12,178 nt of DNA from a virus (IMGVR_UViG_2563366883_000010:1-12178), one strand, 5' to 3'; shown: positions 3,120 to 7,958, numbered from the stretch's first letter. Program-made: numbers and translations. The notes: generated by a model from the letters alone, not told the origin.

Positions 3120-4277
3120 TTAATCGTCGTCCTGTGGCAGTTCCAGAATCTTGATCGCGTTCGAATCCACCACGCCACCGCCTAAATATTTTTGCGTGAA
3201 AATTTTGATGAATCCTGGTTCTGTCAGGTTGTCCGGTCTGGTGCGAACACCTGTTTCGTGATCAACGATGTAGTAACCGCGTTTGAAGTCACCCAGGGCA
3301 ATAACGTTATCAGGCATAAACTCCAGATATTCGACCGGAAGGCCCAGCAACGTATCAGGATCACCCGCCTGTAAACGGTCGCGCCAGATGTAATCACCGT
3401 TCGCGTTCTTCACCTTCTGGAGTTTTGCGGCCGTCGTGGAGTTAACCACCCAGACCGCGTTCTTGCGGTATTTTTTACGTAATGCAAATTTCAGATCGAT
3501 CAGCGGGTCCGCAGATGTCCAGGCAAGAGATTCGGAAGGCTTAATAACCTGCAACGTACCAAAATCACGTTCTTTGTCGTTCTTCTCTGCACGGGGTACG
3601 GATAAAAAGCCTTTTGCTTTTTTGTCACCGTCGCCCACAACCAGATCGCTTTCTTCGGTTTCCGTGAAGGTGTCGCCAATCTCACCCGTCAGCCATGAAA
3701 GGATGTCCACATCGGAAAAATCCACGATTTCCTGTGTGGTGCGCGGGTACGCATAGACCGGATACAGCTTAATGCTCACCTCGTTAATCTGCGGGGTGCT
3801 GGTCTGTTCGCGTGCCTTACCCTCTTCACCGTGGTTAACGGTCGCACCGCCAGCGGAAACAAGCTGCTTAAACTCGTTGCTGCTGATTTTCTTCACGGTA
3901 CAGATGCGGCGCATGGTGGACTCATCCGCCAGCATTCGCATGATTTCGGTGTTCAGTTCGGGGATAACGGTATAACCACCATCAGCGGGAACGCCTGTAC
4001 TCAATGCGCGGGTTTCACCTGTCAGAATGTAGTGACGTAGTTCGGCGGGGTCAGTGGTCTGGCTGTTTTTGCCTGGTTTACTGCGCTCTTCGTCAGCAAC
4101 GGCCTCAAGGCGGGAGATGTCTTTATCGAGGGATTCAGCTTTAGCGCGTAATTCGTCAAATTTTGCGCCCTCAGCATCGTTAAGGCTGCGGTTTTCTTTT
4201 TCCGCGTTCTCCAGTATGTCGCGCATCTGATTTTTAATGGCGGTTTTCTGCTGGCGTAATTCGATTATTCTCGGCAT
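3120..4277 (-). CDS. Major capsid protein, HK97 fold, with N-terminal coiled-coil scaffold-like domain
   Basis: 385 aa from ATG 4277 (MPRIIELRQQ...). The first ~90 aa are charged and helical (ELRAKAESLDKDISRLEAVADEE), like a delta domain. The rest has the usual HK97-type capsid composition. Confidence 0.9.
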   Translation of the reverse strand: MPRIIELRQQKTAIKNQMRDILENAEKENRSLNDAEGAKFDELRAKAESLDKDISRLEAVADEERSKPGKNSQTTDPAELRHYILTGETRALSTGVPADGGYTVIPELNTEIMRMLADESTMRRICTVKKISSNEFKQLVSAGGATVNHGEEGKAREQTSTPQINEVSIKLYPVYAYPRTTQEIVDFSDVDILSWLTGEIGDTFTETEESDLVVGDGDKKAKGFLSVPRAEKNDKERDFGTLQVIKPSESLAWTSADPLIDLKFALRKKYRKNAVWVVNSTTAAKLQKVKNANGDYIWRDRLQAGDPDTLLGLPVEYLEFMPDNVIALGDFKRGYYIVDHETGVRTRPDNLTEPGFIKIFTQKYLGGGVVDSNAIKILELPQDDD

Positions 4278-4367
4278 AAAAAAAGTCCTGAAGTTAAGTA
4301 AGGAACTCCAGGACGCGGCAAACACTCAACCGTTTTTCATAAGGAAATCAGCAATCGCACCGATCGT

Positions 4368-4415
4368 TTTCCCGCCTGGTAATGAATATTGGCGAGCACA
4401 TTAACAGGCGGGAAA
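4368..4415. repeat. Perfect 11-bp inverted repeat with a 26-bp spacer, in the leader of the head operon
   Basis: TTTCCCGCCTG (4368-4378) and CAGGCGGGAAA (4405-4415). The spacer holds a second nested pair TAATG/CATTA (4380-4384 / 4399-4403). Confidence 0.5.
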
Positions 4416-4491
4416 GTGGCCCCAGCGTCCTGGCACCACGGGCGAGAATACTCATGATTCAGTTCGGGTAAAATATGCCGATCCTGTCAGT

Positions 4492-4518
4492 GAACAACGT
4501 GGAACAACCACGAACAAA
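4492..4518 (-). promoter_or_regulatory. Phased direct repeats, 3 x GAACAA at exact 10-bp spacing (TTGTTC on the coding strand); candidate regulator-binding array
   Basis: GAACAA at 4492, 4502 and 4512. The reverse complement matches 22 of 25 positions with the array at 10869-10893. Confidence 0.4.
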
Positions 4519-4536
4519 TAATTTACAAAAAATGAC

Positions 4537-4560
4537 AAAAAGCCGGATTGCTCCGGCTGT
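4537..4560 (-). terminator. Rho-independent terminator (minus strand)
   Basis: Minus strand reads ACAGCCGGAGCAATCCGGCTTTTT: 7-bp stem AGCCGGA/TCCGGCT, 4-nt loop, then a T-run. Sits 9 nt after the stop of the 74-aa gene. 23 of 24 identical to the element at 4891-4914. Confidence 0.6.
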
Positions 4561-4890: not shown

Positions 4891-4914
4891 AAAAAGCCGG
4901 ATTTCTCCGGCTGT
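4891..4914 (-). terminator. Rho-independent terminator (minus strand), twin of 4537-4560
   Basis: AAAAAGCCGGATTTCTCCGGCTGT; same stem with one loop substitution and a T-run on the minus strand. Sits 4 nt after the stop of the PerC-like gene. Confidence 0.6.
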
Positions 4915-4917
4915 TGA

Positions 4918-5190
4918 TTAGCTGTCTGGGTAATTACGCCATATTTCATCGCTTACACCATCTATACCCATTTCAGCATAAGTGCGATCTACTGCCTTTC
5001 TCAGGTCTCCGTAATTATCCGGCGGCTCCGGTGGCCTCTGTGCCTTTCTGGAACATTCCAGCCGTCGCATCGTAACCTGATGCCGTTCCTTGTCTGTCTC
5101 CACCAGCAGCATGACTTCACCCCATCGCGCCGCCGCCCTCCGGTAAAAGCCTTTCGCCTCGAGTTCTTCCGCTATGCGGTCATGTACCAT
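4918..5190 (-). CDS. PerC-family transcriptional regulator-like protein (90 aa)
   Basis: Start at ATG 5190 (MVHDRIAEELEAKGFYRRAAARWGEVM...) with a GGGGGTG SD directly after the SSB stop. The LE-KG-(F/W)-RRAA-RW signature is what I recall for PerC/Pch activators. The longer ORF to 5310 overlaps the SSB gene and is rejected. Confidence 0.55.
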   Translation of the reverse strand: MVHDRIAEELEAKGFYRRAAARWGEVMLLVETDKERHQVTMRRLECSRKAQRPPEPPDNYGDLRKAVDRTYAEMGIDGVSDEIWRNYPDS

Positions 5191-5853: not shown

Positions 5854-5904
5854 AGGCTTTACCTCACAGCAATAAAATAAAATTTTTGCATTTCAACCCT
5901 TCAC

Positions 5905-6127
5905 CTGTTCACCTTTTGCAATTTTCCCTTTTTATTCATGATGTTAAGGGGTGAACAGTTTCACAAAAACTATTCACCAACTGTTCACCACTGTTCACCC
6001 TTAAAGCTCAATAAAGAATCAAAAAGGTGAACAGTGAATAGTTTGGTGAACAGTTCATAAATAACTGTTCACCCTATAATATACTGATATAAAAGACATT
6101 TATTGCAGGGTGAACAGTGGTGAACAG
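5905..6127. repeat. Iteron-type replication origin: nine copies of GGTGAACAG (both orientations) plus an AT-rich segment
   Basis: Full 9-mers at 5905, 5950, 5981, 5991, 6026, 6045, 6065, 6109 and 6119 (start positions), with partial copies at about 5972 and 6035; AT-rich stretch 6074-6104. Begins 14 nt after the replication-protein stop. Confidence 0.75.
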
Positions 6128-6140
6128 TTATTCCATAAGT

Positions 6141-7958
6141 TTAATTTTTTCCATCGTCATTTGTGACCGATGCACATGATGGCATCCAGTATTCTGAATC
6201 CTCTGTCAGGGTCACATTTGAACGCAAACCGTGCTTCGTTTTCCGTTTCATATACTCCCTGCCATATTCCGCCATTGCCCCCGGCATATCTTTACCGAAG
6301 CGCGTCAGTGTTACAGGTTTACCGAATCCGTGTGCCCTCATATATGCCAGATAGGCGTGATAAAGATACCTGCGCGGACTGAACGGAATAATTTCGGCAT
6401 TACCCACTAACAGACCATCACACATTACCGACGACATGAGATAGCCGCAGAAGTCCACCAGCGAATCGCCCTCGCGTTTTATCACCAGAGCTTCTTCTGA
6501 TTTCTGCTGCTCATACAGCAGGCGTTTAGCTTCGTCCTGGTCAGAAAAACGAGTAAGCAGGTGGCGAATCACAACCGCCAGCTCTCCTTCTATTTTTTCT
6601 GCCAGCATGGGGTCGCGTTCGTTTTCCGGTACAACCTCCGAAAAATTGAATATCACCCGACGACGTGAAATCCCCCCGCTGCGGTCACTGAATGACATGG
6701 CGTTATTGTTCACCGCCAACACTACCGCCTGAATGCGTGTTGAGTAGGGGGCTTTATGCTTCGGGTCGATTGCCACCTTGTCACCGCCTGTAATGGCCTT
6801 AATTCCTGCGCCATCACCAGCGTAACGGGTCATATCCGGCATGATAATCAGCGAAAAGCCAACCACTAACGCGCGTTCCCTGGCATCTTCCAGCGCCTTC
6901 ATGCTTGCCGATACCGTGTTGGCCTTACCCGCCAGCATGGTGCAAATCTCCGCCATCACGCTTTTACCACTTCCCCCTGGACCTGTTACCTCAATGAATA
7001 ACTGCCAGTCGTACCGGTTCGCCAGCACCATGAATAATGCAGCCAGTACGCGATCCGCCTTGCGGTCATTCTCAGCCACCGAACGGCGTAACCACTTCCA
7101 GAAATTCGGCGCATGTGTTGCCAGCGTTTCCCCCTCTGCTGGTGGGCTGAAAGGTAATTCACTGGCAATTAACAACCAGTCGTTTTTGTTATGCTCCCGA
7201 AAATTACCTGTTCTGGTATCAAATACCCCGTTACTGAATCCAATCAGGTTACGGGCTGTATTCCCCATTACAGGCAAACTTAACTTCATGGTATCGACCG
7301 CCGATTTAATGGCGTTCTGCGAATAGCTGATCTCCGCATCAATGAAAATCTGTGCCATAGCTCGCTGTAATTCTTTATCCTGTACTGGCTCCCATACAAC
7401 GCCGTTGTAATGGTGAACAGTGTCAGAGTCAGCATGAATCGCCAGTTCACCGCCATAATGTGCCAGGAGAACTTCGCCGCGTTGACTTGCTCCCATCTGG
7501 TTAAGCGCCAGTGATGAAGCGTTATCGTCTTTTACCCGCTCTTTTTTCTTTACAGGCAGTTCAACTACCTTTTTCTTTTCCGCCTGCTCTGCCCGTTCAC
7601 GTTCCAGATATTCGCGCCAGTTCTCCCGTTTCTGGCTGTGCATTCCTTCAGGGTAATAATCAGCATCCCTGACACCTGCCGCTGCCAGTTTCTGCCCGAT
7701 GGTATTAACAAGCCCCGAACGCAATAACCCCGCCTGATAGAGACGCACGCGATAGCGTCCGTCCGGTACGATTTGCAGGTTGTCCAGTTCGGCAAGTTGT
7801 TGCTCTCCAAGCCAGACAGGTGGCACGTTATCGCCAGCCAGTCGCCCGTCCTGTTCCTGCCACTGCTTCGCATGTGCCCACGCATCACTACCCGCAAAAA
7901 TGATGACTTCCGTCATTTTGTCACGTGGCTGGTGTTTTAAATTTGGCGCTTTTTTCAT
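6141..7958 (-). CDS. Replication initiation protein, P4-alpha / D5-family primase-helicase (SF3 NTPase)
   Basis: 605 aa from ATG 7958 (MKKAPNLK...). Walker A VTGPGGSGKSV, Walker-B-like LIIMPDMT, VVLAVNNN; D5_N-like segment NGVFDTRTGNFREH. The track start at 7973 is GTG; the ATG at 7958 overlaps the upstream stop as ATGA. Confidence 0.9.
   Translation of the reverse strand: MKKAPNLKHQPRDKMTEVIIFAGSDAWAHAKQWQEQDGRLAGDNVPPVWLGEQQLAELDNLQIVPDGRYRVRLYQAGLLRSGLVNTIGQKLAAAGVRDADYYPEGMHSQKRENWREYLERERAEQAEKKKVVELPVKKKERVKDDNASSLALNQMGASQRGEVLLAHYGGELAIHADSDTVHHYNGVVWEPVQDKELQRAMAQIFIDAEISYSQNAIKSAVDTMKLSLPVMGNTARNLIGFSNGVFDTRTGNFREHNKNDWLLIASELPFSPPAEGETLATHAPNFWKWLRRSVAENDRKADRVLAALFMVLANRYDWQLFIEVTGPGGSGKSVMAEICTMLAGKANTVSASMKALEDARERALVVGFSLIIMPDMTRYAGDGAGIKAITGGDKVAIDPKHKAPYSTRIQAVVLAVNNNAMSFSDRSGGISRRRVIFNFSEVVPENERDPMLAEKIEGELAVVIRHLLTRFSDQDEAKRLLYEQQKSEEALVIKREGDSLVDFCGYLMSSVMCDGLLVGNAEIIPFSPRRYLYHAYLAYMRAHGFGKPVTLTRFGKDMPGAMAEYGREYMKRKTKHGLRSNVTLTEDSEYWMPSCASVTNDDGKN

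Follow-up and report, generated by a model that had tools for sequence, protein, structure and literature searches.

A structured leader precedes the capsid gene of a capsid-forming satellite

We analyzed a 12,178-nucleotide stretch of viral DNA (IMGVR_UViG_2563366883_000010:1-12178, hereafter the window), focusing on the leader that lies directly upstream of its major capsid gene. Judging from its sequence, the window is EcCIEDL933, a capsid-forming phage-inducible chromosomal island (cf-PICI) also known as OI-51, CP-933C, or Sp7. Its intergenic region matches E. coli O157:H7 EDL933 at 99% identity and occurs in 444 of 5426 complete E. coli genomes. The older names come from the description of the EDL933 island (PMC3378721), which was later characterized as EcCIEDL933, the prototype capsid-forming PICI, in a study that mentions the packaging operon and describes neither its promoter nor its leader (bioRxiv 10.1101/2022.09.08.507074).

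The minus strand carries all long open reading frames (ORFs) of the window, in the order int, alpA, primase, SSB, PerC, a 74-amino-acid (aa) protein, capsid, protease, portal, head completion, connector, and HNH; the EDL933 copy of the island continues with terS and terL and sits between roxA and phoQ. The capsid gene is the first of a capsid–protease–portal–connector–HNH operon. Because every gene of the window lies on the minus strand, we treated this strand as the relevant one. On it, the capsid/packaging operon begins with a sense-strand 5′ leader RNA of ~160 nucleotides (nt) that contains three hairpins, H1, H2, and H3.

4416–4439, minus strand: H1, the 5′-terminal hairpin GUGG-UG-CCAG-GACG-CUGG-GG-CCAC, identified by folding, covariation (6 of 10 pairs), and a covariance model
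4433–4425, minus strand: region 2, comprising the loop and 5′ inner arm of H1, CCAGGACGC
4368–4415, minus strand: H2, a 17-bp stem interrupted by a single mismatch and closed by a 14-nt loop, folding at −22.6 kcal/mol; structure kept, sequence hypervariable
4317–4367, minus strand: linker of ~50 nt, an insertion specific to the window lineage when aligned with all other lineages
4308–4316, minus strand: region 3, GCGUCCUGG, the perfect complement of 4433–4425, overlapping the 5′ arm of H3
4278–4314, minus strand: H3, an 11-bp stem with an 8-nt loop (4314–4285) followed by U7 (4284–4278), identified by terminator scan and folding
3120–4277, minus strand: HK97-type major capsid gene, ATG at 4277–4275 (PF05065, E = 1.5e-61; EDL933 RefSeq annotation)

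An earlier note on this DNA had described an 11-bp perfect inverted repeat with a nested 5-bp pair at 4368–4415, and this repeat is indeed present as H2. Its 17-nt arms (4368–4384 and 4399–4415) are 94% complementary, with a perfect core of 11 bp and an extension of 5 bp separated by one mismatch. Among 500 dinucleotide-shuffled versions of the intergenic region, only 2 contained a perfect 11-nt inverted repeat with a loop of ≤40 nt. The second hairpin proposed there also exists, but its arms lie at 4285–4295 and 4304–4314 rather than spanning 4287–4316. As had been suggested, this proximal hairpin overlaps the ribosome-binding region of the capsid gene. The 3′ arm of H3 holds AGGA, and the ATG follows T7. 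The repeats belong to a long structured 5′ leader of the head operon, in which conserved hairpins stand directly before the capsid ATG. The highly conserved H1 (4439–4416) lies directly 5′ of the range that had been considered and abuts H2. Folding of the sense RNA (4441–4260) gave −70 kcal/mol (z = −5.3), a value reached by none of 200 shuffles, and folding of the antisense RNA gave −55 kcal/mol (z = −3.1). The linker holds a mini-hairpin (4365–4346) and a 4-codon ORF, AUG AAA AAC GGU UGA (4340–4326), and in the minimum-free-energy fold its A-run is able to base-pair with both the U7 tract and the capsid AUG.

The three hairpins covary among related satellites

Using the capsid protein as a query, we gathered five loci from other Enterobacterales and Gilliamella genomes, together with several hundred further relatives from IMG/VR contigs of 13–18 kb. 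Most of these relatives share a common plan before the capsid ATG, consisting of a TTTGTAAATTAT box, three direct repeats with a 10-bp period, a promoter-like stretch, H1, H2, a C-rich linker, and H3. In a minority of lineages, the promoter-like stretch is kept and is followed by a short unstructured leader. At the sensitivity of blastn, the leader was found in no ordinary phage genome; matches were limited to a 16.5-kb satellite-sized record and, partially, to a 3.8-kb fragment and a 106-kb Klebsiella phage record. Searching viral contigs for additional H3 variants with the pattern GGTTTCKCGTC..GAAACC returned chance matches only, and a further capsid-based scan for covariation mostly returned the same clade.

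Covariation was assessed on an alignment of 35 representatives with pairwise similarity of ≤93%. The H1, H2, and H3 helices were paired in 92% of cells, and 21 of 35 pairs showed compensatory changes on both sides, a level matched by 0 of 500 shuffles; in controls with slid partners, pairing fell to 36–45%. The three helices differed in how they were conserved. H1 is conserved in sequence, yet 6 of its 10 pairs covary, with types changing from GUGGC/GCCAC to GUGAC/GUCAC and from CUCA/UGAG through CUCC/GGAG to CCAG/CUGG in the inner stem. In H2, 11 of the 12 compared pairs were compensatory and the stem sequence differed in almost every lineage, the variants including GGCCGUUUAA, GUCCACCCGG, GGCCGUCAG, GCCCGCCCC, and UUUCCCGCCUG.

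The behavior of H2 bears on one explanation of the repeat, namely that it is a DNA palindrome serving as the operator of a dimeric regulator. The perfect 11-bp inverted repeat and the regulator genes just upstream (PerC/PchE and the 74-aa phrog_1957 protein) would suit such an operator. However, because the sequence of H2 varies by lineage while its pairing stays, H2 behaves as an RNA helix and not as a protein operator; the change affects nearly every lineage, the arms contain G-U pairs and asymmetric bulges, and loop length varies between 14 and 60 nt. In addition, most relatives with the leader lack PerC. The earlier proposal of an operator for a dimeric regulator is contradicted by the same features, and we consider a DNA operator extremely improbable.

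Independent analyses recovered the same architecture. RNAalifold found the three helices on 33 sequences from which the window lineage was excluded, and G-U pairs outnumbered A-C mismatches by 48 to 23, which favors the sense strand. A covariance model built without the window lineage placed its top match in the window at 4439–4338 on the minus strand (27.6 bits, E = 6e-6). The same model gave one match per locus in 54 of 80 related loci, all on the sense strand and all ending at the capsid ATG; that is, the leader occurs once per element in most of the related Enterobacterales satellites retrieved. Rfam 15 returned no family at gathering score for the window leader or for the leaders of 11 related loci, and we accordingly set aside a ribozyme or another known RNA family. 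Taken together, it is highly likely that this region is a conserved cis-acting structured leader of the capsid operon. Moreover, the sequence conservation of H1 extends well beyond what its pairing needs, which suggests a trans-acting partner.

H3 resembles a terminator and holds a Shine–Dalgarno-like sequence

H3 with its U-tract passes the terminator scan, with 11 pairs (five G-C and, on the minus strand, one G-U), an 8-nt loop, and U7 directly after the stem. With a folding energy of −14.6 to −16 kcal/mol, it is more stable than the two genuine terminators upstream (−12.6 kcal/mol). In the window lineage, H3–U7 therefore resembles an intrinsic terminator at which transcription may end. The 3′ arm also contains the only Shine–Dalgarno-like sequence, AGGA (4289–4286), located 8 nt before the AUG. 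The U-tract (7 or 8 U) is present in all members of the window lineage and absent in other lineages, where H3 (GGUUUC-A-CGU ... ACG-GAAACC) ends 6–8 nt before the AUG. A canonical Shine–Dalgarno sequence is absent from the capsid genes of all related loci (e.g., GGAAACCACUCC-AUG, or ACCACAAAACACC-AUG in short-leader lineages), which is unusual for a gene that needs high expression.

A strong terminator-like hairpin placed 160 nt after a promoter and ending right at the AUG is also what one would expect if the window lineage produced a stand-alone, trans-acting small RNA of ~160 nt, with the capsid made from the fraction of transcripts that read through. Relatives nevertheless show the same H1/H2/H3 plan without a U-tract, and in the 54 loci detected by the covariance model the element always ends at the capsid ATG; no complementary target is known for such an RNA either. 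A small RNA is a quite improbable explanation. None of the published small RNAs of enterohemorrhagic E. coli (EHEC) that we considered, Esr41 and EcOnc, maps to the locus.

H1 and H3 share a conserved alternative pairing

Region 2, at 4433–4425 in H1, is perfectly complementary over 9 bp to region 3 at 4316–4308, and this pairing (hereafter 2:3) overlaps 7 nt of the 5′ arm of H3. When the longest complement between H1 and the sequence before the ATG was determined for each of 112 unique leaders, it was the 2:3 pairing, 8–9 nt in length, in 111 of them, and the single exception was a parsing artefact. On the alignment, 95.7% of the 2:3 positions were paired and three of eight pairs were compensatory. 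The GACG loop of H1 and its CGUC partner are almost invariant, the only two changes being A-to-G substitutions in the loop that both keep a G-U pair. The flanks of the pairing vary by lineage and stay complementary (AGACGUGAG/UUCACGUCU, GACGGGAG/UUCCCGUC, and CCAGGACGC/GCGUCCUGG), such that each type of H1 inner stem (CUCA/UGAG, CUCC/GGAG, or CCAG/CUGG) carries its matching region 3.

Position 21 of H1 covaries with two partners, one inside H1 and the other in H3. Because the same H1 nucleotide covaries with both partners, the 2:3 pairing and the H1 and H3 pairings compete. Folding of successively longer prefixes of the leader gave a consistent picture: 2:3 is the equilibrium structure from the synthesis of region 3 until the 3′ arm of H3 appears, whereupon the fold flips to H1 plus H3. 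The probability of 2:3 in these nascent prefixes was at least 0.9 for the window and ~0.7 for the main lineage. As in an attenuator, the 2:3 pairing thus provides a competing helix that is incompatible with the terminator-like or sequestering hairpin.

These observations need to be set against the idea of a static leader, in which the hairpins stabilize the mRNA (H1 against RNase E and RppH), provide sites for RNase III processing (H1 and H2 stacked), and dampen translation. Such a leader would undergo no regulated switching, and the H1–H3 complementarity would be a constitutive tertiary kissing contact. Several features agree with it. The position of H1 coincides with the predicted 5′ end, and the helix of H2, long and nearly perfect, abuts H1. 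In all lineages, the full-length leader has its minimum free energy when folded as H1 plus H2 plus H3, and no sensor was found. A simple kissing contact is impossible in the window, however, where the 2:3 pairing uses nucleotides of the H1 inner stem and 7 of the 11 H3 pairs. The dual covariation of position 21 and the preference of nascent RNA for 2:3 likewise speak against a static leader, and we judge it unlikely.

A probable weak promoter and phased repeats lie upstream of the leader

The operon needs a promoter of its own, because the upstream genes end in a terminator (4558–4541); in some relatives, the neighboring gene is divergent. The following elements were found upstream of the leader and, in the case of the second repeat array, upstream of alpA.

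4541–4558, minus strand: intrinsic terminator, AGCCGGAGCAATCCGGCT followed by a T run, found by terminator scan (hairpin −12.6 kcal/mol); ends the upstream early genes
4518–4529, minus strand: TTTGTAAATTAT box, a single copy in the window; found in almost all relatives and the most conserved upstream stretch
4492–4517, minus strand: TTGTTC direct repeats, three units phased at 10 bp, ~−53 to −78 relative to the predicted start; candidate AlpA array
4472–4467 and 4450–4445, minus strand: predicted weak sigma70-type promoter with −35 TTTACC and −10 TATTCT, respectively, separated by a 16-nt spacer; predicted start at ~4439
10586–10398, minus strand: alpA, encoding a 62-aa protein of the PF05930 excisionase/regulator family by profile match; candidate binder of the repeat arrays
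10869–10913, plus strand: second array of five TTGTT(C/G) units between the int stop codon and alpA

Relatives pointed to the promoter. In every one of the 94 unique upstream sequences, a TAnnnT hexamer precedes the first G of H1 by exactly 5 nt; in 87 of them, the −35-like hexamer that scores best (mostly TTTAC[A/T/C] or TTTTCT) is found at a spacing of 16 nt upstream of it. The window promoter matches the consensus at 8 of 12 positions (4/6 and 4/6). The earlier note saw no convincing sigma70 promoter because 8 of 12 matches fall below the scan threshold of 9; this holds at that threshold, but the relatives indicate a conserved weak promoter upstream of the range considered. If transcription starts at ~4439, as the promoter position predicts, H1 would be the 5′-terminal structure of the mRNA; the literature searched yielded no mapped start for comparison. 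A sigma54 promoter was rejected, as the TGGCAC motif in main-lineage H1 lacks a −12 GC at the right spacing and is lost in the window lineage.

Two further observations concern this region. The TTTGTAAATTAT box is the most conserved intergenic stretch across distant lineages, yet it matches no promoter element. In the main lineage (e.g., L004 2790–2830 and L140 ~7935–7965), the sequence of the third direct repeat is partly shared with a hairpin resembling an intrinsic terminator (CCCCUGUCUCUGACGGGGG then UUUUCUUU), whose U-run makes up the −35 region of the capsid promoter.

A weak promoter fits activator dependence, and the distribution of the phased repeats points to AlpA as the candidate activator. 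Within the window, phased arrays occur only at the capsid promoter and in the int–alpA gap (0.01 expected by chance). In the complete EDL933 island (L001 1409–1433, 2785–2819, and 16637–16661), phased TTGTT repeats also occur beside attL and attR, against a chance expectation of 0.00–0.01. A relative whose AlpA is 49% identical carries phased TTAC arrays at exactly two places, upstream of alpA and at the capsid promoter (0.04 expected). This layout, with a repeat sequence that changes with the alpA allele, is as expected for a bifunctional excisionase/regulator of the Xis/Cox/Vis type, and the phased TTGTT repeats suggest a binding code for the excisionase/regulator of the island; we accordingly regard AlpA as the putative ligand of the TTGTTC repeats. 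In the sister island EcCICFT073, AlpA is known to activate the promoter of its own gene (PMC6092414), and the induction of EcCIEDL933 requires alpA (bioRxiv 10.1101/2022.09.08.507074). The activator-dependent control that had been proposed for the leader thus gains a weak promoter with a likely activator site, although that site consists of the TTGTTC repeats, outside the range considered, and not of the hairpins. PerC/PchE was considered as an alternative activator; it is adjacent in the window but missing from most relatives that keep the repeats, the promoter, and the leader.

A proposed switch at the entry to the capsid gene

We propose the following model, which is probably the best overall explanation of the leader, the promoter, and the alternative pairing. 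AlpA bound to the three TTGTTC repeats most likely switches on the weak sigma70 promoter, with transcription starting at ~4439, while the upstream terminator would insulate this promoter from the early genes. In the resulting RNA, helix 1:2 (H1) would act as an anti-antiterminator. Helix 2:3 (H1 with the 5′ arm of H3) would act as an antiterminator that frees the ribosome-binding site, and helix 3:4 (H3) as a terminator that hides it. The fold adopted would then control access of both RNA polymerase and ribosomes to the capsid gene. Our best guess for the trigger is a protein or RNA that recognizes the sequence-conserved H1. The leader may actually be used as such a switch; for the attenuator mechanism itself, we see the chances as evenly balanced.

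Several points weigh against this model. The 2:3 state of the full-length leader costs 12–14 kcal/mol in the window and 6 kcal/mol in two other lineages. In addition, H1 is the first hairpin to be made, which together with this energy cost means that the switch may rarely flip without a factor. The independent covariation events of 2:3 are few, comprising three lineage types and two G-U cases, and an inverted repeat acting at the DNA level would give the same pattern. H3 is mostly invariant among relatives, and its pairing is backed by few compensatory changes. The U-tract is confined to the window lineage, so elsewhere H3 can act only on translation. The link between AlpA and the repeats derives solely from the locations of the repeats and their co-variation with the alpA allele. 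Finally, no sensing element was identified when leader peptides and aptamers were considered in the leader.

Individual candidates for sensors and trans-acting factors were rejected for specific reasons. A leader peptide was considered for an ATG that stands shortly before H1 and starts an ORF of 10 codons in the main lineage and of 35 codons in the window, but many lineages lack this ATG, and its position is upstream of the conserved −10 element. H2 varies too much to serve as an aptamer. For the C4 and IsrK antisense RNAs as trans partners, the energies of duplexes with the leader lay within the shuffle distributions. The 74-aa phrog_1957 protein, considered as a trans factor, had no informative Pfam or PDB match.

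A more speculative extension, which we hold only tentatively and consider rather doubtful, is that the leader represents a new class of riboregulator of capsid-forming satellites, in which a factor of the helper or the satellite reads H1 through its GACG loop and flips the H1/H3 pairing. If this were true, the satellite would make capsids only once the helper reaches the stage at which tails are available, and the leader would impose a post-initiation checkpoint on top of AlpA-dependent transcription.

Comparison with known regulatory systems

The leader is built like known attenuators and belongs to no described family. Like attenuators and riboswitch platforms (trp/pyrBI, T-box, PyrR, and BglG-type), it has mutually exclusive 1:2, 2:3, and 3:4 helices in a 5′ leader, the last of which is a terminator or hides the ribosome-binding site, with transcriptional (U-tract) and translational versions distributed by lineage. 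Unlike them, it has no leader peptide, recognizable aptamer, known binding protein, or Rfam match; helix 1:2 stands at the very 5′ end, and a long variable hairpin separates regions 2 and 3.

The arrangement also recalls lambdoid late control (PR′–qut–6S RNA–tR′, with Q) and the put RNA of HK022, in which a late or structural operon follows a promoter-proximal structured RNA and a terminator. This likeness raises the question of processive antitermination, whereby RNA polymerase, modified by a put-like H1–H2 RNA or by a protein of the island or its helper, would read through H3–U7 and later terminators. Consistent with such a mechanism, two stem-loops come right after the start and are followed by a terminator-like hairpin, and the surrounding 1.1 kb contains six terminator-like sites against 1.2 expected. 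On the other hand, H3 is the sole leader terminator after H1–H2 and is confined to one lineage; H2, which would supply half of the put-like element, lacks sequence conservation, and the H1–H3 complementarity would be left unexplained. The locus further differs from the Q and put systems in that it encodes no Q-like protein, lacks the terminator in most lineages, and has a conserved cis alternative pairing.

The Pseudomonas AlpA has a 21Q-like fold, makes contacts through residues as far as position 142, and recognizes GGGACG inside its promoter (PMC9371919), whereas the island protein is an unrelated 62-aa PF05930 protein that is not Q-like and shares only the name; the Pseudomonas antiterminator was therefore rejected as a model. 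We consider processive antitermination improbable. The antitermination-type late control suggested by the earlier note survives only in part: control at the level of termination is plausible given H3–U7, but a processive form is not indicated by the 62-aa PF05930 AlpA.

P2 Cox, P4 Vis, and lambda Xis are directionality factors that bind arrays of direct repeats in phase and regulate promoters as well, Cox being an activator of the P4 PLL promoter. The repeats described here resemble the sites of these factors, being phased at 10 bp and located at the att arms, the promoter region of the regulator, and a late promoter, with a small PF05930 protein as the candidate ligand. They differ in that the TTGTTC repeat and its use at a satellite capsid promoter are undescribed in the literature searched, and in that binding by AlpA is predicted from the repeat layout.

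Among satellites, a counterpart is operon I of SaPI, a staphylococcal PICI packaging operon that is controlled by LexA (cited in PMC6092414). In both cases, a packaging/morphogenesis operon of a satellite has its own dedicated control region; in contrast to the LexA-repressed promoter of SaPI operon I, the control region described here combines a weak activator-type promoter with a structured leader. The satellite and its genes were known, while this control region, with its weak promoter, phased repeats, and three-hairpin leader with alternative pairing, was not found in the literature searched or in Rfam. cf-PICIs build their own capsids and steal only the tails of the helper, and the timing of capsid production is not addressed in the literature we found. 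Our analysis provides a control region that can be mutated, composed of a candidate AlpA-dependent promoter and a conserved switch-like leader RNA. If the switch is real, it would constitute a new cis-regulatory RNA family and offer a handle for engineering satellite-based delivery particles.

Other features of the satellite

Further genes of the window that were placed by coordinate or by neighborhood are given below.

12178–10961, minus strand: tyrosine integrase
7973–6141, minus strand: D5/primase-helicase
Between the PerC-family gene and the capsid gene, minus strand: 74-aa protein, phrog_1957

Two nearly identical intrinsic terminators (AGCCGGAG[A/C]AATCCGGCT then a T run; 4895–4912 and 4541–4558, minus strand) flank the phrog_1957 gene. 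In close relatives without this gene, PerC lies 350 nt nearer to the capsid gene, and the distribution of the phrog_1957 gene looks like gain and loss through recombination between both flanking terminators.

The leader was also considered as a site of replication or packaging. Iterons do not lie in the leader but at 5900–6135, with ~9 copies (GGTGAACAGT) in both orientations in an A+T-rich gap downstream of the primase gene that is probably the replication origin of the island. A cos or packaging site would be expected in the HNH–terS region, and the leader contains no repeated or phage-shared site.

The region 8796–9459 (minus strand) contains C4 antisense RNA genes at 9274–9361 and 8796–8883, an isrK-like RNA at 9383–9459, and a c4-a1b1 target at 8951–9000, all at Rfam gathering scores. 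This C4/isrK module adjoins duplicated Icd-like small ORFs and represents an RNA immunity module of the P1/P4 type within a cf-PICI. Finally, a DUF4222 protein (99 aa; 7955–8254, minus strand) is probably RgdR, and the PerC-family protein (4918–5190, minus strand) is PchE; both are reported regulators of host virulence or motility genes in EHEC.

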